A stretch of DNA of 64,000 bases. Origin: Squalus acanthias (Eukaryota). The notes beneath the pieces were generated by a model that worked only from the letters and a program-made list of their open reading frames with translations, ran no database searches and was not told the DNA's origin. The stretch covers positions 89,034,001 to 89,098,000 of the forward strand of contig CM059432.1 of the NCBI GenBank assembly GCA_030390025.1. Reading direction: 5' to 3'. The translations under genes were made by a program, and so were the position numbers. Shown here piece by piece: positions 3,379 through 39,948 of this stretch; positions within the stretch are counted from its first letter, which is position 1, and every line of letters begins with the position of its first letter.

Positions 3379-5677
3379 CCCATCCTCACCAATCTACCTG
3401 TCGCAGATGCATCTGTCCATCACAGTATTGGTAGCAGTGACCACCGCACAGTTATTGTGGAGATGATGTCCCGTCTTCACACTGAGGACGCCCTCCATCG
3501 TGTTGTGTGGCACTACCACCGTGCTAGATTCAGAACAGATCTAGCAGCTGAAAACTGGGCATCCATGAGGCGCTGTGGGCCATCAGCAGCAGCAGAATTG
3601 TATTCCACCACAATCTGTAACCTCATGGCCCGGAATATCCCTCACTCTAACATTACCATCAAGCCAGGGGACCTAGTTCAATAAGGAGTGTAGAAGAGCA
3701 TGCCAGGAGCAGCACCAGGTGTACCTAAAATTGAGGTGCCAACCTGGGGAAGCTGCAACACAGGACTACATGCATGCTAAAAAGCGGAAGGAGCATGCTA
3801 TAGACAGGGCTAAGCGATCCCACAATCAACGGATCAGATCAAAGCTCTGCAGTCCTGCCACGTGAATGGTGGTGGACCATTAAACAACTAACGGGAGGAG
3901 GAAGCTCCATGAATATCCCCATCCTCAATGATGGTGGAGCCCAGCACGTGAGTGCAAAAGACAAGGCTGAAGTGTTTGCAACCATCTTCAGCCAGAAGTG
4001 CCAAGTGGATGATCCATATCGGCCTCCTCCTGAGGTCCCCACCATCACAGAAGTCAGTCTTCAGCCAATTCAATTCACTCCACGTGATATCAAGAAACGG
4101 CTGAGCACACTGGATACAGCAAAGGCTATGGGCCCGACAACGACCTGGCTATCGTGCTGAAGACTTGTGCTCCAGAACTAGCCGCGCCTCTAGCCAAGCT
4201 GCTCCAGTACAGCTACAACACTGGCATCTATCCGACAATGTGGAAAACTGCCCAGGTATGTCCTGTCCACAAAAAGCAGGACAAATCCAAACTGGCAAAT
4301 TACCGCCCCATCAGTCTACTCTCAATCATCTGCAAAGTGATGGAAGGTGTCATCGACAGTACTATCAAGCGGCACTTACTCACCAATAACCTGCTCACTG
4401 ATGCCCAGTTTGGGTTTTGCCAAGACCACTCGGCTCCTGACCTCATTACAGCCTTGGTCCAAACATGGACAAAGGAGCTAAATTCCAGAGGTGAGGTGAG
4501 AGTGACTGCCCTTGACATCAAGGCAGCATTTGACCGAGTGTGGTATGAAGGTGCCCTAGTAAAACTGAAGTCAATGGGAATCTGGGGGGAAACTCTCCAC
4601 CGGTTGGAGTCATACCTAGTACAAAGGAAGATGTTTGTGGTGATTGAAGGTCAATTATCACAGCCCCAGGACATCGCTGCAGGAGTTCCTCAGGGCAGTG
4701 TCCTAGGCCCAACCATCTTCAGCTGCTTCATCAATGACCTTCCCTCCAACATAAGGTCAGAAATGGGTTGTTCGCTGATGACTGCACAGTGTTCAGTGCC
4801 ATTCACAACTCCTCAGATAATGAAGCAGTTAATGCCCACATACAACAAGACCTGGACAACGTTCAGGCTTGGGCTGATAAGTGGCAGGTAACATTCGTGC
4901 CACAGAAGTGCCAGGGAATGACTATCTCCAACAAGCGAGAGTCTAAACACCGCCCCTTGACATTCAACGGCATTACCATCGCCGAATCCCCCACCATCAA
5001 CATCCTGGGGGTCACCATTGACCAGAAACTTAACTGGACCAGCCACATAAATACTGTGGCAACAAGAGCAGGTCAGAGGCTAGGTATTCTGCGGCGAGAG
5101 TCTCACTTCCTGACTCCCCAAAGCCTTTCTACCATCTACAAGGCACAAGTAAAGAGTGTGATAGAATACTCTCCACTTGCCTGGATGAGTGCAGCTCCAA
5201 CAACACTCAAGAAGCTCGACACCATCCAGGACAAAGCAGCCCGCTTGATTGGCACCCCATCCTTAACCTTAAACATTCACTCCCTCCACCATCGGCATAC
5301 CGTGGCTGCAGTGTGTACCATCTGCAAGATGCACTGCAGCAACTCGCCAAGGCTTCTTCGGCAGCACCTCATAAACCCGCGACCTCTTCCACCTATAAGG
5401 ACAAGGGCAGCAAGTGCATGGGAACACCACCACCTCCAAGTTCCCCTCCAAGTCACAAACCATCCTGACTTAGAAGTATATCACCGATCCTTCATCGTCG
5501 CTGGGTCAAAATCCTGGAACTCCCTACCTAACAGCACTGTGGGAGTACCTTCACCACACAGACTGCAGCAGTTCAAGAAGGCAGCTCACCACCGCCTTCT
5601 CAAGGGCAACTAGGGATGGGCAATAAATGCTGGCCTTGCCAGCGTCACCGACATCCCATAAACAAATTTTTAAAAAT
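3379..5677 (+). mobile_element. 5'-truncated non-LTR retrotransposon (CR1/L2 group), ORF2 pseudogene
   Basis: End of APE domain (IGSSDH), RT motifs YRPISLL, LDIKAAFD, GVPQGSVLGP and FADD across frameshifted ORFs 3127-5613. AATAAA and an A-rich tail follow the stop. Confidence 0.88.
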
Positions 5678-5679
5678 CC

Positions 5680-5897
5680 AATCGTTGCCAGAGAATCATT
5701 TTCTTCTTGCTCCTGTACTGTTTCCCCCAAAGATCTATCCTTAGCCCCCAACTATTGCTGCCCCTCAGCGATATCATTGGATAACACAACGTCAGGTTCC
5801 ACATGTATGCTGATGACACCCAACTCTATCTCAATACCACCTCTCTCAATCCCGCCACTGCATCTCATTTGTCAAGCTGCTAGTCCAAAAATTACCT
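5680..5897 (+). mobile_element. Old L2 LINE fragment, part 1 (continues at 12133-12297 and 18373-18587)
   Basis: Degenerate PQGS..LGP and YADDTQLY coding sequence. The colinear continuation after the ERV and after Harbinger copy 2 (AAENLIHAFVTSRLEYSNSLLAGLP) matches the L2 at 20084-20914. Confidence 0.75.
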
Positions 5898-6340
5898 TGT
5901 TGGTGAAAAATGAATTCACTCGAGTCTGTCTCAAAGCAGAAGATCACAGTTTATTTAACAGAGAGCTCTGGGAGAAGAGCCATAGACCCCGCGGTCTAGT
6001 GATCCACTTCTCGTCGTTACAGTGGTATCGAAACTTCTTTTATACATTATAGGGTTGGATACGCAATTCATTACATACAAATGTCTTCACCCAATCCCAT
6101 TCCCCCAGCAACAGCTCCTAATTATAATCTGCCCTTTAAGCTGTATTTTTACTTCCCTACCGAAACTATAAACATTGGGCCTCGCACATACACATCTTGA
6201 CCACAGACATTACTCATCGCACTGTGTCAGCGAAACCATTCTGTATTTACGAATTTACCTTAACTTTCACATTGCTGCTTTAACTTACATTCTTTAACTT
6301 TTACATTGTTGCTTTAAGCCCTATAATTTTTACCCTAACA
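5898..6340 (-). repeat. ERV-A 3' LTR
   Basis: Direct repeat of 11685-12127 with about 4 differences by eye. Preceded on the minus strand by a purine tract AGGAGGGAC (PPT, ~6341-6349). Confidence 0.95.
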
Positions 6341-6483
6341 GTCCCTCCTGTTTGTCCCTGATCAAAACTCCTTTTGTGACAGGGAACCAGCATCATACGG
6401 ATTTCTGGTAATGTAAGTAGATACTTTTACATTCCAGGGGCTCACAGTCCGTTAGTCAGACTGTGGCATCCTTGTATAGGGAC

Positions 6484-7662
6484 TCATATCCACACATCTC
6501 TCTCTCCGGGTGTCACTTGATTAACCATCATGACACTTACAGCAGGCCATGACATTTGAGCGCAACAACATTTTAACAATAGGGCCAGACCATACATCAC
6601 TAATATTATAACAAAGAACAAAATCAATCCTTGTACTACTGATATCCCGAGTGATCCCAACCATCCAGTTGCCCAGCCCAGCCCCAAAGGGTGGATGCCG
6701 GAGGTTGTTTTAATTTCTTTACTTCTTCCTGTATGTGTTCTGCCAAGTTAGTTATTGCTTCCGAGTTATCTGGTATGTAGGTACAACATTCTGTACCGAT
6801 TAGGGCACAGGTTCCCCCTTTTTCCACCAACACATAGTCAAGGGCCATCCGATTTTGTAGAGCTACTGTGCGGAGGGTTACCATCTCTACATTAACCTTA
6901 ACTAGGGCTTCAGCTGCATCATTGGCCACCTGCTCCAAGACGGAGGCCAGGTTAATGGATTCCCTTGCCAATTTAGCCACTCCATTCTCAGGGCAACCAG
7001 GGATAGGCCCTATGACTGCACACGAAATGAGTCCCGTTGTAGGGGATATACTTATTTACCTCTGGGGGGTCCCATTGTACTGAAAAGTCACCGCTTTCAT
7101 TTAGTGACGGGAGTTTCACACTACCCGTTTCACCAGGCAAGGCAATGTTATATGTGCAGTTACTGTAGCCCACAATAGGATCTGTCGGTCATCCCCTCTT
7201 TGCGAGACATAGTCCCCCCCTTTGTCCCTTCTTACTCCTCTTTCTCAGGAACGGTAGTAGATAGGAATCGTTATATGTTGACCATGTCCACCCACTACAA
7301 TATTCTGGGTTGTACCCATGACGTTGGAGCTTTGCTATAGTGCTGCCGTCTGTCTTGGCTTCATAACAGCCCACACTTGTGCATCCTGCTCTAACTCCAA
7401 ACATCCAACTGACTGTCTCATCATCACTAAGTGGGATTGGTTGTAGGGGGACTCCTTCCTCCGAGTGCGTGGGGACATGGGCGCAGACCCAACAGCTGGC
7501 AACATCAACTCTCTTGGCATATGTGTATGACATATATAAAAAGGTGTTCACCCGTAACCCTCTTTTGGCCCGTGGGGGTACTCTAGCCTGAGTCCTCCCG
7601 AGGCTACATATTATGATTATACAAACTAGCAAACTACACATGATATTGCATAACACATTCAT
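6484..7662 (-). pseudogene. env: ERV-A env, gamma-type (CxxC, ISD, CX6CC), with frameshifts and a deletion spanning the SU/TM cleavage site
   Basis: Signal-peptide-like MNVLCNIMCSLLVCIIIICSLG, RAKR, CWVC, immunosuppressive domain LQNRMALDYVL, CALIGTECC, and TM anchor LILFFVIILVMYGLALLL. Confidence 0.92.
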
Positions 7663-7766
7663 CTTATCACTTTATGTTAACAATGTCCCAAAGGCTATAT
7701 CGCCAACCGAACCGCTTTGTTGCTTGAAGATTCTATTTTGCTGTGGGGGTGAATAGAATACTGTCA

Positions 7767-7996
7767 TTAGGCTGGTTCCTCGATAATAACCATTTCGATT
7801 CCCTCCTCCTGCTCGACCGGTTGGAGTCGATGGGATTGCTCCCATACATGCTTCAGGATACTTCCCAGGGTGTATCCCATTAGGATAATGCATATTGTCC
7901 ATACCAACGTTTGCACCAGCACCCACTCCCATTCTTTGTATTGTCTAGCGTATTCTTCACTTCCCACAAAAGGTACTTGCTCTGGTGTAGCTATTT
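7767..7996 (-). CDS. Small single-pass transmembrane ORF of ERV-A (no ATG upstream of the conserved motif)
   Basis: Open frame ...ATPEQVPFVGSEEYARQYKEWEWVL followed by a hydrophobic stretch; aligns without gaps to ERV-B ORF 39055-39255. Confidence 0.6.
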
Positions 7997-8017
7997 TTAA
8001 GCTGGCGAAGGGTCATA

Positions 8018-8911
8018 GGGGTAAAAATTCACTTGGTTGCGCCTCCCGTTAGCGCCTTAAGAGGGCGCTAATGGGGCGCAAAGCCGCTAACGCCCGGGCG
8101 CAGCGATGTTTGCGCCGCTCGAGAACTTAACTTGAGATTGTGCGGCGGCGCTAAAACTTACCGCTGCGACCACCTGCGCGCGCAGATTGTGACGTCATTC
8201 CATGGTGCAACGCCCTTGTGGCGCCCCGTAGCGGAAATTGAGTGGCGCCCCCTGCCTTACCGCCTGGCGCTTCCAACGACCAGAAGACTGGAACGCTATC
8301 AATCGCTGTGGGGCTGGGGGGGGGCGCTATTTAAAGGGGGCCTCTTCCTGTCTTTTATTGTTGGTGGCATTTTTGAACTACGCATTCTGAGAGAGAGAGG
8401 GAAAGACTTCTGGAGAGATTCAACGTTGTGTGAAGGAGTTTTGGGTACTGAGCAGCACTTTGCAGGTTCATTTTGATTTGCCATTCCTTGTATCGATTTA
8501 GCAGAGACTGTGGGAGCTGCACTCTGAGCTCTTTGCCTGGTACTCTCCATTGTTCTTTCCAGCACATTTGATGTGCAAGTCTCTCCAGGCTGAGATTCAA
8601 GGCAGCAATGAACAGGATGTGGATGGAAAGCAAGATTAACCCTCCCCTTTAAGAACTGGCCCGTGCCATTGTGTGTGTGTTCCATTGCTGACTGACATTA
8701 CATGAGCTTCGCCAGCGCTTCGAGTTAGCACCTCACTCCTTGGCCTTTGCGCCTTAAGAGAGGTGTGCAGCGCCTGCTTTAGCGCTCCACTCACCTCCCG
8801 GGGCGGTAAAAGTGAAGTTTTCTGTCAGTGCCGATAATTAGCGCCAGGCGCTAATATTTGCGTCCGGACGATATTTGCGCCCCAAATGGGGCGCGACCTA
8901 ATTTCTACCCC
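8018..8911. mobile_element. Harbinger-type MITE (894 bp) inserted at the end of ERV-A integrase
   Basis: TIRs GGGGTAAAAATT / AATTTCTACCCC, 3-bp TSD ATA, many TAGCGCC motifs. A second near-identical copy starts at 63852. Confidence 0.88.
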
Positions 8912-9745
8912 ATAGACTTTTAGCTGTGTCCAGTGCTTCCATCGTCCCATGCTCTTCATATCAATGCAAGCACACGTATCTCCACTAATTAGAATCTGAT
9001 ATGGTCCTGACCATTTTGGGGCAAACCCGGGTTTCCCTGGTAAACCTTTAACCATTACCTTAGTCCCAGCGGGAGGGATATATGGGAACGCGGTCAATTC
9101 TAAATCCTTATCCTTTTCTTCCTGTCTGTCCCGCGTTTGCTGCCTCATTTCCTTTAATTGACTGCTTAATTCGAGGACATACCTTCGGAGCTTATCCTTT
9201 AGAGGACCCACATCCTCTCCTCCAGTTATTATGCCATGGGGGAGTTGCATTGCCCTCCCCGTCATTAGCTCATATGGTGATAAGCCCGTTGTTCGGTTTG
9301 GGGTGGCTCTTAGTTTCATTAAGACTGTTGGTAACACATCTACCCACTGTTGATGTTTGTCCCCTAAAGCCTTGGCTACGGCTGTTTTCAAGGTTCGGTT
9401 CATTCGTTCCACCATTCCAGAACTTTGGGGATGGTACGGAATGTGGAATTTCTGCTTTATGCCCATCCACTTGCATACATTCTTTACTACTGCTCCCGTA
9501 AAGTGAGTTCCCTGATCTGAGTCAATTTGGATCGGTATTCCCCACCTGGGAATTATTTCCTCTGCCATTATTCGTGCCACGGTGGTGGCAGTACAGTTCC
9601 GGGTTGGGAATGCCTCGACCCATCTAGTAAACTGGTCTATTATTACCAGGCAATACTTCTTACCCCTTGACGTGGGGAGGGGTCCAGTGAAGTCTATTTG
9701 TATATTTTCCCATGGGCCCCTCGGCCGTTGTTGGTGGGCCATCCG
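8912..9745 (-). pseudogene. pol: ERV-A integrase (core and C-terminus; HHCC domain deleted)
   Basis: QIDFTGP, IDSDQGTHF, YHPQSSGMVERMN (D,D35E) and GPY motif WSGPYQIL. Confidence 0.92.
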
Positions 9746-9799
9746 TATCTTAACGGGTCGTCCTGTTTTAAGGTCGCCCATACTGACTTCATTGCCTTG

Positions 9800-10257
9800 C
9801 ATATAATCCCATAGTCTCCTTCCTCCTTCCAGTCCTGGGCCACGAGTTTTGCACTTCCTACTGTTGCCAAATGGCAAAGTGGTTTTCCCCAGTTTACTTT
9901 GTTCCCGTCTCCCTGTACCCAGGTTAACTTTCCTTGTCGTGAATCTATTAACAAATTAAATTCTTTTAACAAATCTATTCCTAAGATAGTCCCCTCACTG
10001 TTTGGGCATACATAAAATTGTGCGGGTAATAGTCGTCCCGCCAATTCCAATACTTGTACCTCACTTTTAAATGCATGTAAACGCTCCCCTCCCAACCCCA
10101 CTATGTCTATCCTTTGTTTGGTGAGGGGAAGGGGTAAATCGGTAATGGATACAGAAGCTCCCGTGTCTACTAACATATCGTACTGCCGGCCCCCTAACAG
10201 TGCCGGTACATAGACTCTGGGATCTTCCTTCTCCCTCTTGATGGGGGCCGCTGCTAG
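9800..10257 (-). pseudogene. pro: ERV-A aspartic protease
   Basis: LVDTGAS catalytic motif and ILGIDLL motif; in frame with the gag stop at 10258-10260. Confidence 0.88.
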
Positions 10258-11194
10258 TCAGTGACCACCACCCTGTTCCTTTACATACTGCAGGAACTTT
10301 TGATACATATCAATGGTCCCGGTCTGGTTTGGCTCTTCCTTTTTTGTCCAACACCTCTCGGTTGAATGTCCCGGTCTTGCGCAATTAGCACATACCGGTC
10401 AGTTTTGTTTGGGGGCCCTACATTCTTTTGCCATATGACCCAACTTCCCAAATCTTTCAATATTGTTAATTTTTCTAAGGGCCTAAAAGCTTGGTACTTG
10501 GCTGTGGGATTTTGTACCATTCCCCCTCTTTTTAAAGGGGCTGCCTTTATTTTTATTACTGCTGCTAGTGTTGGAGCCTTTGCAGCTTCCAAGAGGGCCT
10601 CTATCCGCCGCTATTATGGCAAAATTTGGTATATAACTCCGACTGTAATTAAAGAGTCCTAACACTTTTCTGACCTCACCTTACCGAGACGGGTCTTGGC
10701 ATCTCTTGGATCGCCTTCCGTCGGTCTTGTGGCATGGTCCTTACCCCCTGGGACAATTGTTGTCCCAAATTTGTGACTGTAGTCTGCCCAATCTGTGCCT
10801 TTTTCGGGTCTACTTTAAACCCTCCTGTTTCTAGGGCTTGCAGAACCACCACCAGGGCGGCGGCATGCCCTCTGCTGTCTTCTGATGCTATCAAAAGATC
10901 ATCTACATATTGTAACTCTTGTTCTAATTCAAGAATTCTTTCATTTTTACTTGCAAGTCTAGTGTGGAGTCGCTGCACCTTGTTAGTTAATGCGACTAAT
11001 TGGTTTACTAGTATTACCCTCGCCTTTTTTGTCTTTTCTGTTTTTGACCCTCTACCACTTTCTTTTACCTTCGGATTCTGAAGCGGGTCCCACCCCTCCT
11101 TCGTCATCTTATCAACTAAACCCTTCCGGTCGTCTGCATAGAACCTAGTAAGGGATCCCATTTGTCCCCATTCTATTTCTTTCCCCGACGCCAT
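10258..11194 (-). pseudogene. gag: ERV-A gag remnants (N-terminus and two zinc knuckles) with an RT segment inserted between them
   Basis: N-terminal MASGKE...coiled coil, then YVDDLLIAS...LGLFNYSRSYIPNFA (RT, ~10610-10915), then GKLGHMAKEC and CANCARPGHSTERC knuckles. Confidence 0.8.
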
Positions 11195-11664
11195 TTGTAG
11201 TCCAACTTACAATCTTACCAAATGCTGAGTTCCTCTACTCGGGCTTGTTCTTGATACTTTAAAGACCTTCAAGCGGTTAATTAGTCACAACACACATATA
11301 TATTTGCTGACTTCACGATCCCAGGGTGCTTTGGAGCCTCTACGCCTACTTGATCCTGGCCGTCACGTGGGACTACGTCCTCTTAATTCAGGCTCAGGCA
11401 AGGTGTTTGAGACAAGCACCCTCCTTGTCCATGTCGTTTCGTCACTCACTCATTCCTTCGCGACATTTATCGCTACACAGTGTTCCCTTTAGTACTTGCG
11501 ATCCACACTCTCACAACTGTGTTCTCCTACCTCTCACAGACTTTACTTGATTCATGATGCTACGGCACTGTCCCTCCGCCTTTCCAGGTGACTCAATTTC
11601 TGGACGGTCAAAATTGACTTCTCGTCCGGGTTCACCGGTGTGGGCGGTCTTTCAGTTCCGGAGC

Positions 11665-11682
11665 ATTCTGCCAACTACGCCA
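11665..11682 (-). promoter_or_regulatory. ERV-A primer binding site, tRNA-Ser
   Basis: TGGCGTAGTTGGCAGAAT, 2 nt from the LTR; 16/18 match to the complement of the vertebrate tRNA-Ser(AGA/TGA) 3' end. Confidence 0.85.
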
Positions 11683-11684
11683 AT

Positions 11685-12127
11685 TGTTGGTGAAAAATGA
11701 ATTCACTCGAGTCTGTCTCAAAGCAGAAGATCACAGTTTATTTAACAGAGAGCTCTGGGAGAAGAGCCATAGACCCCCGCGGTCTAGTGATCCACTTCTC
11801 GTCGTTACAGTGGTATCGAAACTTCTTTTATACATTATAGGGTTGGATACGCAATTCATTACATACAAATGTCTTCACCCAATCACATTCCCCCAGCAAC
11901 AGCTCCTAATTATAATCTGCCCTTTAAGCTGTATTTTTACTTCCCTACCGAAACTATAAACATTGGGCCTCACACATACACATCTTGACCACAGACATTA
12001 CTCATCGCACTGTGTCAGCGAAACCATTCTGTATTTACGAATTTACTTAACTTTCACATTGCTGCTTTAACTTACATTCTTTAACTTTTACATTGTTGCT
12101 TTAAGCCCTATAATTTTTACCCTAACA
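11685..12127 (-). repeat. ERV-A 5' LTR
   Basis: Direct repeat of 5898-6340, adjacent to the PBS. Confidence 0.95.
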
Positions 12128-15100
12128 TACCTCCAGTTAATTATTGTGAAGACCGAAGCCATTGACATCGGCCCCCGCTACAAACTCCATTCATGGCCAC
12201 CAACTTCATCCATCTCAATGGCAACTGTCTGAGGCTGAACCAGACCGATCGCATCCTCGGTGTTCTATTTGACCCTGACATGAGCTTCTAACTTGATGGG
12301 CTCGATTTTACCAGGCCTGAGGAGGCGGGTTTGGAGGCGTGTGAGTTGTCGAAAATCGCAAAAAATGGCGGGCGGCTCCGATCCCGCCTCTGAGCAATTT
12401 TCCCACATTCGTGGTTTCAGACCCCATTTCCATCCCACCTCCAAGAGGCGGGATAGGTCCTTAAGGTCCTTAACAACCAGTTAATTGCCTCTATAATCCC
12501 ATTTGCAGAGGCCTTTCTGATTTTAACACATTTCCCCTGTCTTGCACGTCTCCTCTGGAACACGCCAGTTAATCCTTGGCGGCCTCACAAGTGGATTGCT
12601 TACTAACAGTTGCATCTCCACCATTAAAAAGGAGTTTTCACCAATGGTCATTTGCAGGTGGCAGTACTTTGTTGTCTCAGGTCTGGGGAACTTTTAGCAG
12701 GCCTACTCATTGTTGTGGAAGTTTGGAGCCTGACACCCATCTCCACTGTGACCTCTGGGAAACCCCTCTCCTCACCTTGACTGAGCGCTTCCTCAACTGA
12801 GGTATGTACCAGAAGCATAGGAACCATTTATTTCCTTTCCTCCTGGACATCAGATTTGGACGAAGCCCAGCCGCAGCAGCAGCAGAACCCTGAACAACAG
12901 CAGCACCAAGAGCAGGAGCAACAACAGGAGCGCCAAGCTGCTGCTCACCCACCTGAAGCTCCACAGGCCAGAAGGCGCCAGAGCGCGACCACATTGCTGC
13001 CCGGGATGCAAGGAACGCAATCATGTTGGCCAGATTTGCTTAGCCTGCACAATCAAAAACTTTTGCCTCGCACCTTCTTACCAGAGTATCGACAATGGAC
13101 AAGAGCCTGCGGATTTCTATCCCTCTGACCACCATATTGACAATTGCAAGTCGCCCTAAGCCCTCAATGTGGAAGTCCCATTTGCGAAATGACACAGGCC
13201 ACAACTTCAACAGTTTGCCATCAAATCTGTTTATCATAAAAATTCAACGATGGCTTGTCAAAAATCAATACAACAGAACACCCAAGTGACTACCCTTGTG
13301 ACTACTTGTGCTTTATCTTCCTCTTACTCACTTTCTTGCTGCTGCTGTCTTGACACTTTTGGCGGCCATCCTCTGGGGTTGCGAACCTGTGAGGGCTCGG
13401 CAACAGTCTGCTGCTCCTAAGGCTGTGCAGGGGCTGAGACGTCCATCTCAGTTGGGTGAGGAATCTGGTGGGGCTCTAACCGAGAGCTCTGCAGTGGTAT
13501 GGTCGTGTGAGCGCTTGGAGAGGAGCCCCCACTTCCTTGTTGTCTGCCACCAACATCCCTCTTATGGGTCAGCCCCACTTCAGAGCTAGCAAGTGGCTTG
13601 ACAGCACCTTGCTGCATTTCAGGGGGGCCATGAGGACCCGTTTCTGCACTGGAAGTCCTACTCCAGAGGACTTCCATGAAAGTCTAGTTTCTATGCTCAA
13701 TAGTTGACCATCACTCCTCAAGAGATGTCAGTCTATTCTGAACAATGACCATGCTTTCAATACCCTGGCGACTAAGCTCCTCTATGGCCGTAGCCATCCT
13801 CTCCTCTACCATAGCCATCCTCTCCTCTACGGTAGCCAGCCTTACTACGGAGGTAGCCATCCTTTCCACGGAGGTTGTCATCCTTTCTGTGGTGATGCAT
13901 ACATGCGTCAATGCCTCCACAAAGGCTCTGCTCATGTTCGCGATGGACTCCTCCATTCGCTCCACACTCGCAGCGACCCTGGAGAAAAAACCTGCCAGAG
14001 TTTCCTGCACCTCTTCCTGGAGTTCCAGCACCGCTCTCCTTCTGGGTGGACCTGAAGGCACAGGGTGGACATGCAGCTGAGCCGAGCTGGCAGAGTCCTG
14101 CGCCCTCCAACGAGGACTCTCCACTGCTGTCCCTGTCTCCACCATCTGCTGATGCTCACTTGTGATTGGTGATACACTAGGTAACAACACTACTCTATCT
14201 CGCGAAGGTCCCACCGAGGTGTGAGTGTCTGCGCTGGTGCTGGGTGCACTGAATTCTGCAGACGCTGCGCCCTCAGAGGTTGCAGCTTCCTCTGAGGAGT
14301 CTTCAGGCTCAGGCTGTTCTTCCTGGACAGTGGGGACGGGGGCTCTCGATGGTCCTGTGGGGGAGTAAAGGAAAGAGCTAGAGATGTGAGGTAAAGGTAG
14401 CATGCACATTGAATTGTGCAGATGATCATAAGTCAATCTGTTAGAGCATCAGAATCATTATCAGTCACTCATGCAATGTCAATGAGAGAGATACAAAACT
14501 ATTCTGTCACCAGCTTGCTGTGGTGCGCCCGTCTGTCCGTCCCCCACTTGTGAATCGTCCTCCACTCTGGCGATCTCCAGGGCCGCCTCCTCCGAGGTGG
14601 TGAGCTGGGCTACTGAGGGTGGCCCTCCTCCTGTCCTCGCTCTTTCCCTCTTATTGTGGGCTCTCTTTTCCTGCAATGAGGGACACAAGTGGAGTTTGAG
14701 TGAGAATGAAGGAGTGAGTGTAGAGAATCCATAGCATAGATGCTTAGAAGGAGATAAAGGGCCCTCCCTGTGTGTTGTAAGTTGTTGTCATTGCATCACA
14801 GTGATTGGGAGTGTGAGGGCTGCATGGTCGAATAGTTAAGTGAATGTGACCATAGAGAGAGAGGGAATGGGTAAGGGTGCAGGGTCAAGTGGGATGTGGA
14901 GGAAGAGGTTGGCAAAGCAGAGTGCTGGTGGTGAGAGGCGATGGGGATCAGATTGAGGGTGATGGGAATGTCATACTCACTTTTCTTGTGCGGAGAAGGT
15001 CATGAAACCTCTTCCTGCACTGCAGCCAGGTTCTGCTGCACATAGAAATTGCGTTTATCTCTTGGGCCACTTGCAGCCACACAGCTTTAGTCTGCTGGGG

Positions 15101-27015: not shown

Positions 27016-27635
27016 TGAAAGGGTTAAAAGAGCTAAAATGAGGAAATTAAGGAACCAAGCATATATCCAACCATATAAAGAGTGGTTCTGAACAAGTTGA
27101 AAAGGGGGAAGTATGATGTAACATGGTCAAGACTACACACTACAAATCACTAATTGAGTAAAATATTAGAAATAACCTTGGAGTCGCGGTTGCTTTGGTG
27201 AAATCTTTCAAAGCAGTTTTAATTGGAATTACTTGAATTTAACCTTGGAGTTGCCAGATTAATGTGCACACGAACTGCAAGAAGTTGCACCTGAGAACAA
27301 CTATTTTGCACCCTGAAACCAACTATTTTGCATCCGAAACCGACTATTTGCACCCGAAACCACCTGGGGGATGCAATAAATGTATATATGTAATGTAAAT
27401 GATTGTCGGACAATAGCCACGACTCAGAACAAAAACTGTATATAAAGTAAAAGATTTTCAGCGATCGGAGAGCATTCGTCCTAAGATGAGTGTCTCCCCT
27501 GTCGACTTGTAATAAAGTTAATTTACTGGATGAACCTCCGGACTCCGAGCGATTGATTGGGAATAAGGCGGACATTGACCCTTTATATCAGAGGCTCCGT
27601 CTCTGGGAGAAGAAGCTCTCCCAGTTTACCCTACA
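27016..27635 (+). repeat. ERV-B 5' LTR (620 bp)
   Basis: Direct repeat of 39371-39948; TATATAAA at ~27440 and AATAAA at ~27511. Confidence 0.95.
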
Positions 27636-27638
27636 TCT

Positions 27639-27656
27639 TGGCGTAGTCGGCAGGAT
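27639..27656 (+). promoter_or_regulatory. ERV-B primer binding site, tRNA-Ser
   Basis: TGGCGTAGTCGGCAGGAT is an 18-nt complement of the tRNA-Ser 3' end (ATCCTGCCGACTACGCCA). Confidence 0.92.
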
Positions 27657-28209
27657 CTACCGGACGGGCTGAGTAGAGACATTGGGCTCGAATTTCATCG
27701 GGCCGTTGAGGCGGGATTGGAGGTGTGTGGGTGGTTAAAATTGCAAAAACTGGCAGGCGGGCCCAACCCGCCTCCATCCTGCCTCCAAGCAATTTTCATT
27801 AAATCGTGTCTACTGGTCCCGTCTCCGTCCCGCCTCCAAGAGGCGGGCTAGGCCGTTAAGGCCCTTAAGCACTAAATTGCCTCTATAATGCCATTTTGAT
27901 AGGTCTTTGTGATTGTAACCCTTTTCCCACGTGAAGCACGCCTGTTCTGAAACATGACAGTGAAACCTGGCGGTAGCACAATTGGATTGCTGACTATCAG
28001 CTGCAGCTCAACCATTAAATAGGAGATTTGATCAGCTGTCATTTGTAGGTGGCAGGACTTTGCTCTCTCAGGTCTGGGGGAACTTTTAGAAGGCGTAACC
28101 ACAGCTGTGGAAGTTTGGAGCCTGACACCCATCTCCAGTGTGACCTCCTGGGAAACCCCTCTCGCCACCTTGACTGAGCGCTTCCTCAACTGAGGCATAT
28201 ACCAGAAGC

Positions 28210-29852
28210 ATGGGAGCCATTTATTTCCTTCCCTTCTGGACATCAGATGAGGACGAAGACCAGCCACGGCACCAGCAGAACCATGAACAGCAGCAGCACC
28301 AATAGCAGCAGCACCAACAGCAGCAGCAACAACAGGAGCGCCAAGCTGCTGCTCACCCACCTGAAGCTGCACAGGCCAGAAGGGGCAAGCGCATGGAAGC
28401 CCGTCGGCACAGGAGATACCCCGCAAACAGGGTCTACAGACACAGGGACAGCTACCTCAACATGTCTGAGCAGCAGTGCCAAAGGCGGCTCCGACTTTCG
28501 CGAGAGGTAGTGGGTGACATCTGTGCAATGCTACAACAAGACCTGGAGCCAGAGGACCAGGTGGACACCCCTTACCAGTGGCCCTCAAAGTCACCACTGC
28601 ACTCAACTTTTTTGCCTCAGGCTCATTCCAGGGATCAGCAGCAGACATCAGCGGCATCTCCCAGGCGGCCGCACACACTTGCATCATGCAGGTAACCGAT
28701 GCCCTCTTTGCCATCGCGCACAATCACATCCATTTCACCAAGGATCGAGCAAGTGTCACGGCGCATGCGGTTGGTTTAGCTAATCTGGCAGGCTTTCCAA
28801 GGGTCCAGGGTGTAGTTGACTGCGCACATGTGGCCCTTAAGGCACCCCATCGCAATCCAGGTATTTTTGTCAACCGCAAGGGCTTCCACTCCCTCAACGT
28901 GCAGCTGGTGTGTGACCACAAGAAGGAAATTTTGCATGTTTGTGCCAAGTACCCTGGCAGTTGCCATGACTCCTTCATACTGCACCAGTCTAGTGTGCCT
29001 CCACTATTCAGTTCACCAGACCAACTTGACGGATGGCTACTGGAGACAAAGGCTATCCCCTGAAGACGAGGCTAATGACGCCGTTGAGGAGCCCATCCAA
29101 CGAAGCTGAGGAGAGCCACAACTCCAGCCACATGTCCACCAGAGCCATAATAAGGGGCTGCTCTTTCAAAACTGAGATGAGGAGAAACTTCTTCACTCAG
29201 AGGGTGGTAGGTCTGTGGAATTTGCTGCCCCAGGAAGCTGTGGAAGCTACATCATTAAATAAATTTAAAACAGAAATAGACAGTTTCCTAGAAGTAAAGG
29301 GAATTAGGGGTTACGGGGAGCGGGCAGGAAACTGGACATGAGGCTGAGTTCGGATCGGTCAAGGCCCTGTGGGTGGCGGAGCGGGCTGAGTGGCCGGGTC
29401 CTGCTCCTACTTCTTGTGTTCTTTAGATTTGAGGTTAGGATCAGATCAGCCATGATCTTATTGAATGGCGGAGCAGGCTCGAGGGGCCGATTGGCCTACT
29501 CCTGCTCCTATTTCTTATGTTCTTATGTTCTTATAATCGAGCAAACCATCGGTTTGCAGAAGATGCGCTTCAGATGCCTGGATAGATCAGGTGGAGCCCT
29601 ACAGTACTCAGCAGCCAGAGTCTCCAGAATCATTGTGGTTTGCTGTTCACTTCACAACATGGCACAGCGTCGTAGCTTGCTGATTCCTGAGGACCAAGTG
29701 GCTCGTCACATATCCTCCTCAGATGAGGAGGAGGAGGAGGAGGAGAGAGAAAACGAACATCTTGCTGAGGCCCATCAACCAGCAGCAGCAGTACACGAGA
29801 ACATTGCTGCCCGGGATGCATGGAAAGACTCATCTTGGCCAGATTTGCTTAG
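28210..29852 (+). pseudogene. Harbinger copy 3 transposase (stops, frameshifts, CR1 insertion)
   Basis: VVDCAH, HDS, GDKGY and IEQTIG in broken frames. Confidence 0.9.
29152..29532 (+). mobile_element. CR1 3' fragment (same subfamily as 15142-18037)
   Basis: Near-identical to the reverse complement of 15142-15530; flanked by an ATAAT duplication. Confidence 0.92.
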
Positions 29853-30109
29853 CCTAGCCAATCAAGCACTTTTGCCTCACAGCTTCTTACCTGAGCATCG
29901 ACAATTGCCAAGAACCAGCGGATTCCTAGCAATTTGAACACCATACTGACAATTGCAAGTAATCCTAAGCCCTCAATGTGGAAGTCCCATTCGCGAAATG
30001 ACACACGCCACAACTACAGCAGTAGCCATCAGATTTTTTATTTACAGTAATCATCTGATGGCTTTTTAACATAAAACATTAAAATTCACCCAAGTGACTA
30101 CCCTTGTGA

Positions 30110-32078
30110 CTATTTGTGCACTATCTTTCTCTTACGCGTGCTCCTATGTGGTGCTTCCCCTCTGGCTTCAGCAGATGTGGAGGCCCCTTGCTCACTTTCT
30201 GCTGCTCCTGTCTCGACACCTTTGGCGGGCGTCCTCTGGGGTTGCAAACCTGTGAGGGCGCGCCAACAGTCTGCTGCTCCTGTGGCTATGCAGGGGTTGA
30301 GACGCCGATCTCAGTTGGGTGCGGACTCTGGTGGGGCTTTGACCGAGGACTTGTCAGTGGCATGGAAGTGTGAGCGCTTGGAGAGGAGCCTCCACTTCCT
30401 TGTTCTCTGCAAACAACATCCCTCTCATGGGTCAGGTCCACCTCAGCGCTTGCAAGTGGATTGAGAGCACCTTGCTGCACATCAGGGCGGCCATGGGGAC
30501 CCGTATCTGCACTGGAAGTCCTACTCAGAAGGACTTCCATGAAGGTCTGGTTTCTGTGTTCAATAGATGACCATCGCTCCTCCAGAGATATCATTCTATT
30601 CTGAACACTCACCATGTTTTCTGCACTCTGGCGACTTATCGCCTTCATGGCCGCAGCCATCCTCTCTACTGTAGCCATCCTTTCGACGGAAGTTGCCATC
30701 ATTTGCACGGAGGTTGCCATCCTTTCCGTGGTGATGTGTTCATGCGCCAATGCCTCCACAAAGGCTCTGCTCATGTTCACAATGGACTCCTCCATTCGCT
30801 CCACACTCGCAGCGACCCTGGAGACAAAACCTGCCAGAGACTCCTGCATCTGTTCCTGGAGTTCCAGCACCGCTGATCTTATGGATGGACCCAACGGCAG
30901 AGGGTCGACATGCAGCTGAGCCAAGCTGGGAGAGTCCTGCGCCCTCTGACTAGAAATCTCCACTGCTGTCCCTGTCTCCACTATCTGCTGATGCTCACTT
31001 GTGAGCTGTGATACACCAGGTGACAACACTACTCTATCTCGCGATGTTCCCTCCGAGGTGTGAGTGTCTGCGCTGGTGCTGGGTGCGCTGAATTCTGCTG
31101 ACGCTGCGCCCTCAGAGGTTGCAGCTTCCTCTGAGGAGGCTTGAGGCTCATGCTCTTCACCTGGATAGTGGGGACGGGTGCTTGCGATGGTCCTGGGGGG
31201 GAGTAAAGGAAAGAGTCAAAGATGTGAGGCCAAGGTTACGTGCATATTGCAGATGATCATAAGTCCATCTGTTAGTGCTTCAGAATCATTATCAGTGACT
31301 CATGCAATGTCATTGAGAGAGATGGAAAACTATTCTGTCACCAGCTTGCTGTGATGCGCCCGTCTGTCCGTCCCCTACTTGGGAATCTTCCTCCACTCCC
31401 ACCATCTCCAGGACCGCCTCCTCCCAGGTGGTGAGCTGGGCTACTGAGGGTGGCCCTCCTCCTGTCCTCGCTCTTTCCCTCTTATTGTGAGCCCTTTTTT
31501 CCTGCAATGAGGGAGACAAGTGGAGTTTGAGTGAGAATGAAGGAGTGAGTGTAGAGAATCCATAGCATAGATGCTTAGAAGGAGACAAAGATGGAGTGAG
31601 GTGGCAAGACCAAGGGCCCTCCCTGTGAGTTGTAAGTTGTAATTGCATCACAGTGATAGGGAGTGTGAGGGCTGCATAGTCGAATAGTTAGGTGAATGTG
31701 ACCATAGAGAGAGAGGGAATGGGTAAGGGTGCATGGATGTCAGTGTCAAGTGGGATGTGGCGGAAGAGATTGCTAAAGCTGAGTGCTGGTGAGAGAGGCA
31801 ATGGGGATCAGATTGAGGGTGATGGGAAATTCATACTCACTTTTCCTGTGCGTAGAAGGTCATGAAGCCGCTTCCTGCACTGACGCCAGGTTCTGCGGGT
31901 TATTGACAGAGTTGACCTCCTCTGCCACCTGGATCCACACAGCCTTGGTTTGCTGGGGAGGCTTCTTCCTCCCTGAAGAAGGAAAGAGCACCTCTCTGTT
32001 TGCTCTTGCTCCCTCTACTAAAGCCTGCAGGGCAACGTCATCAAAGCGGGGTGCAGACCTAGGTCTCTGGCTGGCCAT
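30110..32078 (-). pseudogene. Harbinger copy 3 Myb/SANT-like gene, frameshifted
   Basis: MASQRPRSAPRFDDVALQALVEGA...; same three-exon layout as copy 4. Confidence 0.88.
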
Positions 32079-32628
32079 TCTTCCTGCAGGTGCCTCTAAC
32101 ATGCAAGGGCAAAAGCTTGGCAGTCTGCAGAAGAAGCAAGGCTTGTTGCAGACCTTAAATGCAGCAGCAATGATGACGTCATCGGAGGCGACTTTCAGAC
32201 TGGAAAAACTCACTGGCCATGGGTTCCCACACGTTGGAACTTAATTGGCCAATTAGGTTAAAATGGCATCATTCTCCCACATCGATTTAGAATCGGGTGG
32301 CTAACACGAAATGCAGATTACACGACCCCAGCCCACCCCAGTATCAAAATCCAGCCCATTGTCTCCTTGCATCGAAGCCCAAGGCCGGAGATCCAACGAA
32401 TCTGAGGCAGAGTCCGGATACGTGAGCAAAACAACTTAGGTGCGCGTTTGGACATTGTAAAAATGAAAATGTCTGAATAAGTTGTGGAGCTTGGGTTATA
32501 TAGGATTGGATATAGGGAAAATCCAATCTAGGCGGAGTTAAAACCGCATAAGCAGGGAAGGTCCCTGAAGGTCCGGGGAAGTCCCGGAGGTAATAAACAG
32601 GGGGAACTAGCAAATCCATCCTGAAAGA

Positions 32629-32862
32629 ATGGCGAACAAAGAGGACGCCAAAAGATCTAAACTCCCGTACGAGTTTGTACGAGACAAATATGAAAAGGTT
32701 ATGGGGAAGATGATTAAGAAAGGCTATGAGTCAGGAAACAAACCGAAATGGAAAAACAATTGGTGGATGCAACAGAAAGGGAGTAAGGAGGATGAGGCAA
32801 TAGTGGTTTGTGTAGAAACAGGACATAAGTATTGCGAGAAGAAAGGTAAATGTCCCCTTTGA
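32629..32862 (+). pseudogene. gag: ERV-B gag N-terminal remnant
   Basis: Positioned after the leader; weak similarity to the ERV-A gag N-terminus (KM.K.G). Capsid, nucleocapsid and protease are not seen downstream. Confidence 0.5.
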
Positions 32863-33688
32863 AAAAGTGATAAACTTTATTCCGGGAAGTCTGTCTCAAA
32901 AAACCACAATGGGTTAAGAGAGAAACATAGCCATGTGGTTAAGCATAAAGTGCAGGAGAGAGAGGGAGAGATAAAGAAGGAAAAAGATCTAATTTGCAGG
33001 CTAACCAATCTGAAAACTCAGCAAAGGAAGGGAAAAAACAGGGATTTGGAAAGTCAGGAAAAGCTGCTGAGACGCCGATGTAAAAAGAAGAAAAAAAAGA
33101 GAAATTTAAAGTTTTACCGACATGGAAGTTATTAATGTCTGTGCCGAGACAAATAAAACACAAGATTTGCTGAGTGAAAGGAATCTTAAAAGGAATGCTG
33201 GGATCTCAGTTTGAGTGAAAGTGTGTTTTAAAGGTGAAAGTTTTCCTGACTGTGAATGTTTAAGAAGTTACAGTATTTCTTTTGTCTGAAAGTCTGTCTT
33301 TAAAAAGTGTCTGTCATTTTTGTTTTAGCTCCACCCACTCTTTTGTACAGCGAGCTAAAAGCTGTTTAACCCTTTGAAGACTTATCTTGAAGGATGGACA
33401 AGCGTGTGTTGTTTTAAGTTTGTTAATTGTTTTACGAAAGATAAGCTTCAGCCTTGAAGTCACAGATGCCAATGTGCCTGGAAGAAAATGAATTTGAATG
33501 TTTACAAGGCATGGGTAATTGTTTCTTTGTTAATGTGGCTCTGGTTTCTTTCTTTTCCAAGTGATACTGGTTAGTTAAGAAAAAATTGATCTGGATTAAA
33601 TTGGAGTTATGAGGTTAATTAACCTATCGAAACCAGACTTTTATTGTGACCACGGTGAAATTTTGTTTGGTGTAAATTTGTGTAGACC

Positions 33689-36598
33689 GCATTGAATAAG
33701 ATAACTCCGCGACAATATCCGATAGTGGCGAACCCGTCCACCATCCTACATGACCTAGACCCTAAGGCCAAAGTGTTTACGGTGTTAGATATAGAAAATG
33801 GGTTCTGGAGTTTGCCCTTGGACCAAGAGTCCCAGGACAAATTTGCATTCACAGTAGGAAATCAACAATATACGTGGACCCGGTTACCTCAGGGATTGCA
33901 CAACAGCCCGGCAATTTTTCACCAAGCAATGGCAGAAGCCATGGAAAAGGTGGACTTGAAACCAGAAGAAAGTACCATCACCCAATATGTAGATGCCCTG
34001 TTAATAGCATCCCCAAACATGGAAAGCCATTTATGAGCCCTAACTAAGGTGTTGGGAGCCCTGAGAAAGATGGGGTTTAAAGCCTCACCCCGGAAAGCCC
34101 AGATAGCCCAAAAACAATTACAATATTTGGGACACAGGATAAGTAGGGGACAGAAAGAAATGATGGAGGAGCGAAGACAGGCCATTAGGGACATGCCAAG
34201 GCCTGTAAATGTAAGAGGGTACGAAAGGTGCTGGGATTATTTAAATACAGCCGGAACTTTATACCACCCTAGTGGAACCAATACAGAAACTGGTCAAAGG
34301 TACAAAGGGACCTATGGAAGGGATAGATTGGGGAACTGAGCAAGAAGAGGCATACAACACCCTTAAGCAAGAACTTATAACGGCCCCTGCATTAGGACTG
34401 CCAGACCATACCCGACCCTTCCACTTGTACTGTGACCAGGACCAAGGGAGTTATTCAGCCGTGGTAATGCAAGATCACGGAGGGAAACAGAGACCCGTTG
34501 CGTATTACTCCACCAAGAGAGATCCAGTAGCGAAGGCAATGCCACGATGTGTGGCTGCAATAGATTGTGCCACATGGGCGGTGCGAGTAAGCGAACCAAT
34601 AGTGATGATAGGAAAGGTAATTTTGCATACCCAACATACCTTAGTGGAACTACTTAACACAGGAAAATTGCGAACCATATCGGATAGCAGAAAGGCTAAA
34701 TGGGAAGCTATATTACTCCCTAGGGATGGAACTGTGATAATACAAAAACATACCGGGGTTAATCCAGCCACGGGCATATTAACGGAAGGGGAGGAACAGA
34801 GCTGTCAGATGAAAATGGAGGAAGAAATAGGCAGTGGAGTAAAGGAAGTCCCACTGGAAAACCCCGATATGGTGATTTATGTAGATGGATCCCGAAAATA
34901 TATCAACGGAGAACTCAGAACAGGGTGGGCCGTAGTAAATCAGGAGGGAAAGACCCTATTTAAGGAGCCCTATATGGAGATAAGTCAGCACAGGTAGCGG
35001 AGCTAGTGGCCCTAATAAAAGCATTGGAAATGGCAAAGAACAAATGGGTAAATGTCTACACGGATAGCCGATATGCCTTTGGAGTGGTGCATGATTATAT
35101 GACACTATGGGCCCGGAGGGGTTATATGACCTCCACTGGAGAGGTAGTAAAACATGGAAAACTAATAGAAAGGTTAGTTAAGGCTGCATGGGCACCCTTA
35201 GAAACCGCGGTAATTAAAATAAAGGCCCACACGAAGATAGACATGGACTCACAAGAACCCCAGGACCCGGCCCCCATAGGGACTAGGTATGCGGACTTAG
35301 CTGCAAAATTAGCTGCGGAAGAAATGCAACCAGAGACCGCGTTTAAAAACAAAATAAATATGGTCATGACGGTCAGTGGGCTACAGGAAGTGAATATAAT
35401 GGAAGTACAAGAAAATACTAGTAAAGAGGAAAAGGAGAAATGGAGACAAGCTGGCACGCAATTACAAGATGGAATTTGGAAATGGGGCCCACGTAACCGG
35501 GTGGTGGCACCGGAATGTTGTAGGCAACAGCTGATGGCGCTATACCATGGCGTAACACATACAGGCAGAAGTGACATGTTACACCTACTGACACAGTACT
35601 GGTGGTGGCTGAAGATGGGTCGAGAACTGGCAAGGTATTGCCACCGTTGTATAATATGCGCTCAAAGTAATGTAGGACAGAGATGTAGAGTTAGAGTAGC
35701 ACACCAACCCAGGCCCCAAGGACCCTGGGAAAACTTACAGATTGACTTTACCGGCCCCTTCGCGCAGGACCGGGGGAAGAAATATTGCCTGGTAATAATT
35801 GATCAATTTACCAGGTGGGTGGAAGCCTTTGCCACCCGAGATTGCTCTGCAAAAACAGTTGCACTAATATTGGCTACCGAGGTTATACCCCGTTGGGGAA
35901 TGCCTCTGCAAATTGACTCAGACAATGGCACCCACTTTACCGGTAAAATAATGAGAGAAACATGTAAGCTGTTACACGGAACACAAAAATACCACATACC
36001 ATATCACCCCCGGAGCTCGGGGATGGTAGAAAGAATGAATAGGACACTGAAAAACGCGCTGACAAAAGCCATCCAAGAAACAGGGAAGGGATGGTCAGAA
36101 TTACTACCCAGCATATTAATGAGGCTGTGAGCCACCCCAGGACGTACGACTGGACTGACCCCATATGAATTAATGACAGGACGAGCGATGAGACTGCCAG
36201 AGGATCTGGCTGGAGGGGTGGGAGAACCAGGACCAGTACAAGATAGATTAAGACGATATTTAGTACAACTAAACCAGGAGGTACAAGCACTAAATACAGA
36301 AGTAAGGAACCAGCAACAGATTAAAGATCTAGAGAGACAAAATACTGGACTTAAACCAGAGGAGTTGCCCAAAATAGGCCAACAGGTAATGACACAAGTT
36401 ATTGGAAGAAAGGGAATGGAACCTCGTTGGATGGGGCCATATACTGTATTAATCACAAGTGATCCATGTGTTTGTCTACAGGAACCGACGGGCATGCGAT
36501 GGAAGCACTGGACCCAGGTGAAACCATTTAACACTAAAGATCCCCATTCTACCCTCTCCTCTAGGGAAAAGAGCTCGGAAAACGATGGACTAAGATAA
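33689..36598 (+). pseudogene. pol: ERV-B pol: RT, connection/tether, retroviral-type RNase H, integrase
   Basis: LDIENGFW, RLPQGLHNSP, YVDA (mutated YVDD), APALGLPD tether, VDGS...AELVAL...YTDSRY RNase H, HGVTH...CHRCIIC zinc finger, D,D35E core and GPY motif. Confidence 0.93.
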
Positions 36599-36605
36599 CC
36601 GTACC

Positions 36606-39031: not shown

Positions 39032-39054
39032 TAATGCATACTGTCCGGTGGTAA

Positions 39055-39255
39055 TTGTTGCAGAAACCTCCTGGACAGATTCCCATTGAGCAGACGGAAT
39101 ATTACTATGAACAAGAGAAGGCTTGGGAGAAAGACCTGCTTAACGGATGTATAGTACTAACAACATTAATGTTCATAACCTATGTAACTGGGTGGATAAT
39201 ATGTCGATGGAAAGGATGTAGGGGACATAGAAATCAGGATAATATGATTATGTAA
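39055..39255 (+). CDS. Small single-pass transmembrane ORF of ERV-B (no ATG upstream of the TM)
   Basis: PGQIPIEQTEYYYEQEKAWEKDL followed by hydrophobic CIVLTTLMFITYVTGWIIC; homologous to ERV-A 7767-7996. Confidence 0.6.
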   Translation: MLQKPPGQIPIEQTEYYYEQEKAWEKDLLNGCIVLTTLMFITYVTGWIICRWKGCRGHRNQDNMIM

Positions 39256-39370
39256 ATTGGGTGACCCAATGGGTTGGATTTGATCACCTCCCCGGCAGGA
39301 CACCATAATAGGAGAAATAATCGGGTTGGTCAATGATTAAAAGGGATTAATCAGGACCAAAAGGGGGGAC

Positions 39371-39948
39371 TGAAAGGGTTAAAAGAGCTAAAATGAGGAA
39401 ATTAAGGAACCAAGCATATATCCAACCATATAAAGAGTGGTTATGAACAAGTTTAAAAGGGGGAAGTATTATGTAATGTGGTCAAGACTACACACGACAA
39501 ATCACTAATTGAGTAAAATATTAGAAATAACCTTGGAGTCGCGGTTGCTATGGTGAAATCTTTCAAATGAGTTTTAATTGGATTTACTTGAATTTAACCT
39601 TGGAGTTGCCAGATTAATGTGCACACGAACTGCAAGAAGTTGCACACGAGACCAACTATTTTGCACCCGAAACCACCTGGGGGATGCAAGAAATGTATAT
39701 ATGTAATGTAAATAATTGTGGGACAATAGTCATGACTCAGAACAAAAACTGTATATAAAGTAAAAGATTTTCAGCGATCGGAGAGCATTCGTCCCTGGAT
39801 GAGTGTCTCCCCTGTCGACTTGTAATAAAGTTGATTTACTGAACGAACCTCCGGACTCCGAGCGATTGATTGGGAATAAGGCGGATGTCAACCCTTTATA
39901 TCAGAGGGTCCATCTCGGGGAGAAGAAGCTCTCCCGGTTTACCCTACA
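39371..39948 (+). repeat. ERV-B 3' LTR (578 bp)
   Basis: Follows the PPT at 39359-39370; repeat of the 5' LTR lacking two ~21-bp units. Confidence 0.95.

Follow-up and report, generated by a model that had tools for sequence, protein, structure and literature searches.

Two proviruses at the locus

The window – the whole 64,000-nucleotide stretch of Squalus acanthias DNA that was analyzed – contains two proviruses, A and B, set amid LINEs and DNA transposons (Table 1). The LTRs of A are identical at 450 of 454 aligned columns (99.1%) and those of B at 546 of 578 (94.5%); the primer binding sites of both are complementary to tRNA-Ser(AGA) of the same genome. One sub-family of A (L063) has a primer-site sequence that differs from the tRNA-Ser(AGA) type found in A81, B, C and D. 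The 0.9-kb gap after the integrase of A is a later mobile insertion, foreign to the virus; copies 98-100% identical to it occur genome-wide (1233 candidates, 40 scored). This insertion is young and lies also inside three copies of B (L122, L129 and L132). Four B copies (the one in the window, at 27672, plus L121, L122 and L129) contain different DNA-transposon-like insertions at or within a few bases of one leader site, just past the primer site.

Both elements carry a small open reading frame, referred to here as smTM (small transmembrane accessory gene), with a protein product of 63-77 residues.

Table 1. Features of elements A and B, in positions of the window.
Feature	Position	Strand	Remarks
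Element A	5897-12138	-	internally deleted; gamma-type env
3' LTR of A	5897-6352	-	
Broken gamma-type env of A	6639-7662	-	TLV_coat, E 6e-9
Env splice acceptor of A	7741-7760	-	25 nt past smTM stop; junction contigs end at the equivalent place in two sister sub-lineages
smTM, family A	7767-7994	-	75 codons + stop; start codon absent here, present in sister copies
Last integrase codons and stop of A	7997-8017	-	smTM starts 2 nt past integrase stop
Non-coding mobile insertion in A	8018-8911	.	terminal inverted repeats, 3-bp target duplication; splits integrase end
gag-pol of A, internally deleted and rearranged	8912-11194	-	gag begins at 11194; parts of RT, protease and integrase
Leader splice donor of A	11526-11544	-	GT at 11530-11529; used in sister-copy junction contigs
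tRNA-Ser primer binding site of A	11668-11682	-	
5' LTR of A	11684-12138	-	
Element B	27016-39948	+	Harbinger insertion in leader; env without Pfam match
5' LTR of B	27016-27635	+	
tRNA-Ser primer binding site of B	27639-27656	+	
Harbinger-type DNA transposon in B leader	27672-32366	.	DDE_Tnp_4
Deleted gag and broken pol of B	32629-36598	+	RT, tether, RNase H, integrase
Broken env of B	36606-39031	+	non-gamma class common to families C, D, E; no Pfam/PDB match
Six-codon ORF + stop	39034-39054	+	smTM frame; begins at env stop region, closes just before B smTM frame
smTM, family B	39055-39255	+	66-codon open frame + stop; homology from 39064; no start codon in this copy
3' LTR of B	39371-39948	+	

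Homology of the two small frames

The frame of A is open over 7770-8012 (minus strand) and ends at the stop at 7767-7769; that of B is open over 39055-39252 (plus strand), its stop lies at 39253-39255, and a conserved AG at 39062-39063 directly precedes the start of the homology. Both are present and open where the initial annotation had placed them – after env in B, between integrase and the gamma env in A. The alignment on which that annotation relied, with 10 identities in 23 ungapped columns, was reproduced and extends, still ungapped, through the hydrophobic helix (13 of 44 columns, including Y..G.I). As had been described, each protein contains a helix of about 20 residues: there is one hydrophobic stretch of 21 residues per protein, with a mean hydropathy of 1.7-3.0.

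Among the 1222 frames of the window the two smTM frames are reciprocal best non-self matches. Their alignment score (58) was reached by none of 5000 full shuffles; when blocks were shuffled so as to preserve the hydrophobicity profile, 25-103 of 5000 reached it. Since the block shuffles were beaten in only 4897-4975 of 5000 cases, the two sequences by themselves are suggestive; homology is settled because intermediate families link A and B. In genome-wide searches a family D query hits B with E 2e-10 and A types with 5e-4, and a family C query hits A with 3e-11. Profiles built with one family left out recover the omitted family at 22-72 bits overall (A 56-72, B plus D 35-45, E 33-35), whereas 527,916 decoy residues gave no score above 5.7 bits and 500-1000 shuffles none above 10.3 bits. 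The A and B peptides are thus true homologues, with a core identity between families of 25-44%.

The observation that both frames are open although their neighbors are decayed is correct as to openness. It is weak as evidence: the frames are short, the LTR pairs are still 99.1% and 94.5% identical, and private mutations are near neutral.

Five families and two layouts

smTM was found in five ERV families (A-E) of one genome, with at least 150 matches for A (among 500 candidates), 42 full-length matches for B, and tens or fewer for C, D and E. Other family members preserve the frame: it is stop-free in 120 of the 150 best A matches (500 candidates) and in 30 of the 42 full-length B matches, both counts being taken from best-scoring rows and therefore biased toward whole copies. 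Many E copies (e.g. L162-L168) have a common frameshift near smTM codon 26-30, with a stop at codon 49 in those longer copies that were checked, which suggests the spread of a lineage with a damaged smTM. At three loci (L061:6658-7896, L062:6771-8009 and L076:2099-3337) a deletion joins the integrase frame to smTM, giving open frames of 413 codons. At two family D loci (L068:2206-4467 and L069:5660-7902) smTM is in frame with env beyond a single stop codon; read-through yielding an Env-smTM form is conceivable.

Every carrier of smTM has an env of its own, and smTM adjoins it. The order is pol-smTM-env in A, where env is of gamma type, and in C and E, where it is of the class found in B; the order is pol-env-smTM in B and D. 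The envelopes of B, C, D and E can be aligned with one another. The initial annotation had called this class F-like, but none of these envelopes matches the paramyxovirus F model (PF00523), Pfam or PDB structures, and the env structure model is poor (pLDDT 38.5). The class (window 36606-39031 plus loci L169-L188) is large – 7575 first-look candidates, of which 150 were scored – and is spread over several pol lineages; its members have a Trp-rich pre-membrane motif in common. smTM was absent from 20 of 20 further loci of this env class, from several families.

In the RT tree A, B and C fall with ERVs of sharks and cyprinids, not within the clade that holds MLV. Family E belongs to another RT clade (42-47% RT identity to A-C), where it and its smTM-less sister, family F, group with coelacanth and frog ERVs, the deep nodes being weak. 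These trees are weakly supported and the copies mosaic; rows with less than 60% coverage (L123, L154, L183) or lacking the domain were left out, and family D is represented in the RT tree by one frameshifted row. From the patchy distribution we infer gain by recombination or repeated loss, between which the trees do not separate.

All known copies come from this one genome and from one public protein. Profile searches of 5.8 billion and 1.84 billion proteins recovered a single, unnamed protein, 96% identical to an A type; a word-based protein search with D gave no candidate; and scans of viral and metagenome contigs produced 39 and 187 pattern matches, none confirmed as a relative. smTM has no significant Pfam or PDB match (best PDB match: orexin receptor helix 1, E 0.28), and no description of the gene was found in the literature searched, mostly open-access texts. 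A weak B match at L070, with no viral genes flanking it, was dropped as chance.

Selection

Omega is 0.12-0.19 between A sub-families (52 codons; Fisher P = 3e-7, one pair), 0.23-0.42 within C (P = 6e-4, one pair) and 0.23 within B (P = 0.03, one pair), compared to 0.3-2.4 in other reading frames; between families synonymous sites are near saturation. Across copies and families dN/dS is thus well below 1. For the N-terminal 26 codons omega is 0.07 vs. 0.05 for pol (one pair).

Changes shared among copies were then separated from those private to one copy. Omega for shared changes is 0.32 in A (31 distinct copies, P = 0.006) and 0.37 in B (25 distinct copies, P = 0.052), whereas for private changes it is near neutral (0.83 in A, 0.86 in B); shifted-frame controls for this split were not significant. 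Selection on smTM of B is borderline and no stronger than on its env (0.37 vs. 0.28). Because shared changes are constrained and private changes nearly neutral, constraint acted during viral spread and ended after insertion: smTM is a viral gene, not one co-opted by the host. The suggestion of an unrecognised accessory gene is borne out by preservation across copies and families, by dN/dS and by its absence from Pfam, PDB and the two large protein collections.

Start codons and transcripts

Neither frame had been credited with an ATG upstream of the motif. This is true of the two copies in the window; it does not extend to family A, where the motif begins with a start codon in 28 of the 30 best copies. 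In B the frame opens with a start codon in 3 of 30 copies; the other 27 have none there. The start codon of A lies 2 nt past the pol stop and that of C overlaps the end of pol; in D it stands behind the env stop and immediately follows an AG. Of the AG acceptor-like sites that had been noted before both frames, that of B is conserved in 30 of 30 copies, with a poor pyrimidine tract (47%), and that of A is not conserved in the other sub-lineages of its family.

The proposal that smTM is a spliced exon is not supported for family A, which has its own start codon 2 nt past the pol stop. It may hold for family B, whose conserved AG lies three codons into the frame. Translation of B smTM may begin through splicing, at a near-cognate start, or by re-initiation after the six-codon ORF at 39034; in the two B copies scored, no open ATG precedes the leader donor-like sites. 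An in-phase donor-like site in the B env (37082) was rejected as evidence, since such sites do not rise above background, with 13 on the sense strand and 10 on the antisense strand.

Contigs cover the smTM of A in four of four runs (two studies; the runs are presumed to be RNA). Junctions of GT-AG type from the leader to an acceptor just past the smTM stop occur in two A sub-families (one and two contigs, from one presumed-RNA run); these point to an env mRNA that excludes smTM. No junction into smTM itself was present among the joints listed (15 of 24 in one of the two sets), which are of A types only; a joint at 2215-2702 was left out, the intervening letters being ambiguous. One contig breaks 48 nt before the start codon of A; the break has no AG, fits an indel bubble and was not counted as a junction. 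The extra N-terminal residues of one protein (P0001) were considered as a spliced leader, but no leader matched (best scores 20-29, 21 loci); they are read as a frameshifted integrase end.

Exchange of envelopes next to smTM

Defective A elements (L141, L143, L145, L147, L073, L077, L135, L137 and L139) contain pieces of B and D pol, 88-95% identical, from which it follows that the families recombine. Four such mosaic A elements also hold a 114-116-nt piece of B that spans the env end and the start of B smTM. Three sub-lineages of C have smTM (78-88%) and the middle of env (90-96%) in common, with a wholly different env 5' part; in one of them a B/D-like integrase end follows the smTM stop (74-75%, E 1e-12 to 4e-11). 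Env cassettes have therefore been swapped directly past the smTM stop.

These data bear on the history proposed in the initial annotation, according to which the gamma env of A was added downstream of smTM while an upstream F-like env was lost, possibly via a two-env intermediate. The first part stands in form – one C sub-lineage has a foreign env 5' part after the stop, and the A env has its own acceptor past the smTM stop. The second part is not supported, since C and E have smTM upstream of an env of the B class, and a search for the order env-smTM-env found none: 0 of 53 A loci have an upstream B-class env and 0 of 59 B/D loci a downstream gamma env, in a sample that is small and overlapping. 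Direct swaps past the smTM stop explain the gamma env of A with no two-env stage.

Which layout is older is a separate question. On the integrase tree B and D form one nested clade (98% support) among families that have the upstream layout or lack smTM, and the upstream layout is weakly favored as the older. The converse, in which pol-env-smTM is ancestral and the upstream layout arose via a two-env intermediate by loss of the first env, strikes us as rather unlikely. A clean deletion could give the start codon of A 2 nt past the pol stop and the overlapping one of C, and the env cassettes that come in downstream do bring an acceptor of their own; against this are the nested position of B and D, the failure to find a two-env locus among the 53 A and 59 B/D loci, and the sufficiency of direct swaps. 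The RT tree does not separate the two orders, and the copies are mosaic.

Features of the protein

smTM has a single membrane helix at about residues 25-49. Two prolines are invariant in 31 aligned copies, and Glu13, Tyr15, Trp22, Tyr41, Ile46 and Trp51 are present in at least 90%. The conserved part comprises the N-terminal segment – PxxxP, a Tyr with acidic residues ahead of it, then Trp and Leu along one face of the helix – and the Tyr of the membrane helix; the C-terminal tail is variable and has no common sorting motif. The predicted structure is a single long helix (residues 9-72, pLDDT 76). Under the flanking-charge rule, the difference in charge between the two sides of a helix predicts membrane topology. 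Subtracting the N-side from the C-side flank charge gives 0 to +6 in eight of eight proteins, D being neutral, and on this rule an N-out, C-in topology without signal peptide is favored.

We hold with high confidence the joint picture of homology, selection during viral spread only, two layouts, patchy distribution, env swaps past the stop and an env mRNA that skips smTM. smTM is a real and new protein family of a kind already known: a small membrane accessory gene of retroviruses.

Possible functions

The reading placed first, tentatively and by analogy, is that smTM is an N-out accessory protein antagonizing a host membrane protein – a Vpu-like role, though not a Vpu. The gene would have passed among the five ERV families by recombination; its product, made from a separate subgenomic mRNA, would sit N-terminus-out in membranes of the infected cell, bind a host membrane protein and remove or block it, as Vpu does with tetherin and CD4. 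Because conservation is concentrated in the N-terminal segment and the membrane Tyr, that surface is the predicted binding site. Because smTM is kept while both the class of env and its 5' part change, a host factor that all carriers meet, in release or immune restriction, is a likelier partner than Env or the receptor of Env. Against a Vpu-like role, DSGxxS is found in 0 of 31 copies and conservation falls on the predicted outer side, unlike in Vpu.

Second in order, and unlikely, is a fusion helper resembling FAST or sORF2 proteins, in which an N-out mini-protein clusters at the cell surface and aids cell-to-cell transfer of capsids besides Env. smTM fits the description in bioRxiv 10.1101/2025.03.14.642691 by its size, its single helix, the N-out topology predicted for it and an outer segment of 25 residues. 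At least three K/R within 15 residues past the helix are present in 20 of 31 proteins, the outer helix is amphipathic in A and C (moment mostly 0.5-0.7), and B and D have a juxtamembrane Cys. However, the MGxxxS/T myristoylation motif occurs in 0 of 31, outer cysteines are not conserved, tails are short, the moment is low in B (0.14-0.32), and every smTM carrier has its own env, whereas the described sORF2/FAST carriers have none.

Third, and more doubtful still, smTM could be a viroporin whose helix oligomerizes to form a small channel and so promotes budding or release. The size and inferred topology of smTM resemble those of M2, BM2 and SH, as well as those of Vpu (PMC8402909), and the helix contains polar residues and Tyr, with small-xxx-Gly in A and B; yet no pore-lining polar face is conserved across families, and the strongest constraint lies outside the membrane helix.

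The next candidate, of slightly lower standing again, is an N-in signaling adaptor with a cytosolic acidic-Tyr motif phosphorylated by Src-family kinases, for which middle T and Tip are the models. Acidic residues do precede the conserved Tyr in all five families. The charge rule points the opposite way in seven of eight proteins and is neutral in one, there is no YxxPhi or ITAM spacing, and the same motif is compatible with lumenal tyrosine sulfation.

Least probable of all is an Env co-factor or virion component (a chaperone, a third envelope subunit, or in B a second exon fused to an N-terminal piece of env): smTM always adjoins env, B lacks a start codon and has its conserved AG in phase with the frame, and D smTM is in frame past one env stop, but smTM persists next to two env classes that are unrelated and next to several env 5' parts, it is missing from relatives that have the same class of env, and the in-phase site at 37082 is at background.

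What would follow from the Vpu-like role is that the target of smTM points to an old antiviral defense at fish cell membranes. A bolder and improbable reading is that smTM is a portable cassette for an N-out mini-protein that moved between retroviral clades with an RT identity of only about 45% and functions whatever the envelope, its acidic-tyrosine outer helix mimicking the N-terminus of a host receptor or driving Env-independent cell-to-cell spread; were this true, basal-vertebrate retroviruses would have an accessory membrane function of a kind undescribed in any retrovirus. Whatever the function, smTM is a family that can be aligned and shows selection, is recorded in databases by no more than one unnamed protein, and is common to viruses with different envelopes and polymerases, and as a fixed gene beside a swap point it shows how env cassettes get exchanged.

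Comparison with known systems

Small membrane accessory proteins are known from mammalian lenti- and deltaretroviruses. Basal-vertebrate ERVs with a gamma-type env have been described without accessory genes, for epsilon-related elements, in the accessible parts of bioRxiv 10.1101/2021.11.23.469661.

Vpu of HIV-1 and SIV has about 80 residues, one membrane helix and an accessory gene just upstream of env (PMC8402909). smTM is alike in length, in its single helix and, in A, C and E, in lying upstream of env. It differs in the position of the helix (about 25-49 vs. 6-29), in the lack of DSGxxS, in its occurrence downstream of env in B and D, and in transcription: the env mRNA of A skips smTM (three contigs, one presumed-RNA run), though a second, bicistronic form may exist, whereas that of Vpu is bicistronic with env. 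No homology to Vpu was found beyond one of 31 smTM members at E 0.013 to PF00558, and no Vpu appeared in the PDB profile search.

The sORF2/FAST-like proteins occur in LTR retrotransposons, either up- or downstream, and in nackednaviruses and reoviruses (bioRxiv 10.1101/2025.03.14.642691). smTM falls within their 60-210 residues, single helix and outer part of 10-50 residues, is predicted N-out by the charge rule, and has the basic patch past the helix in 20 of 31 proteins; the polybasic patch is absent from most A copies and from D, and E rows end at a stop. It differs in lacking the myristoylation motif (31 of 31), in that its carriers have env, and in that its sequence can be aligned across families. 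Judged by sequence, smTM falls outside both Vpu and FAST/sORF2 on their defining tests.

In outline the host elements resemble lokiretroviruses (PMC7947760): both have the order gag-pol-env, a tether together with RNase H, and an env that is not of gamma type but includes a signal peptide, a basic cleavage site, a coiled coil and a membrane anchor. They differ in that the B/C/D/E env has no F-model match and no smc gene was seen, and cartilaginous fish are not among the hosts named in the abstract of that paper. Family A has in turn the tRNA-Ser primer site, in-frame gag-pol stop and gamma-type env on a non-class-I pol that characterize XtERV-S and class III ERVs with such an env (PMC8278194; bioRxiv 10.1101/2021.11.23.469661); it differs in that a Pfam scan of its pol found no dUTPase family, and the descriptions consulted mention no small membrane gene between pol and env.

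The pol of the host elements lies outside the MLV clade, beside shark, cyprinid, coelacanth and frog ERVs, and its integrase is closest to that of foamy virus in PDB. Lineages like snakehead retrovirus (SnRV), a fish virus, are reported from sharks, coelacanth and zebrafish (PMC4422223, PMC4977317), and SnRV itself has three small accessory ORFs on spliced mRNAs, ORF1-3, of 52, 94 and 76 residues (PMC12193657). Likened by description rather than by sequence comparison, these ORFs are the nearest context for smTM.
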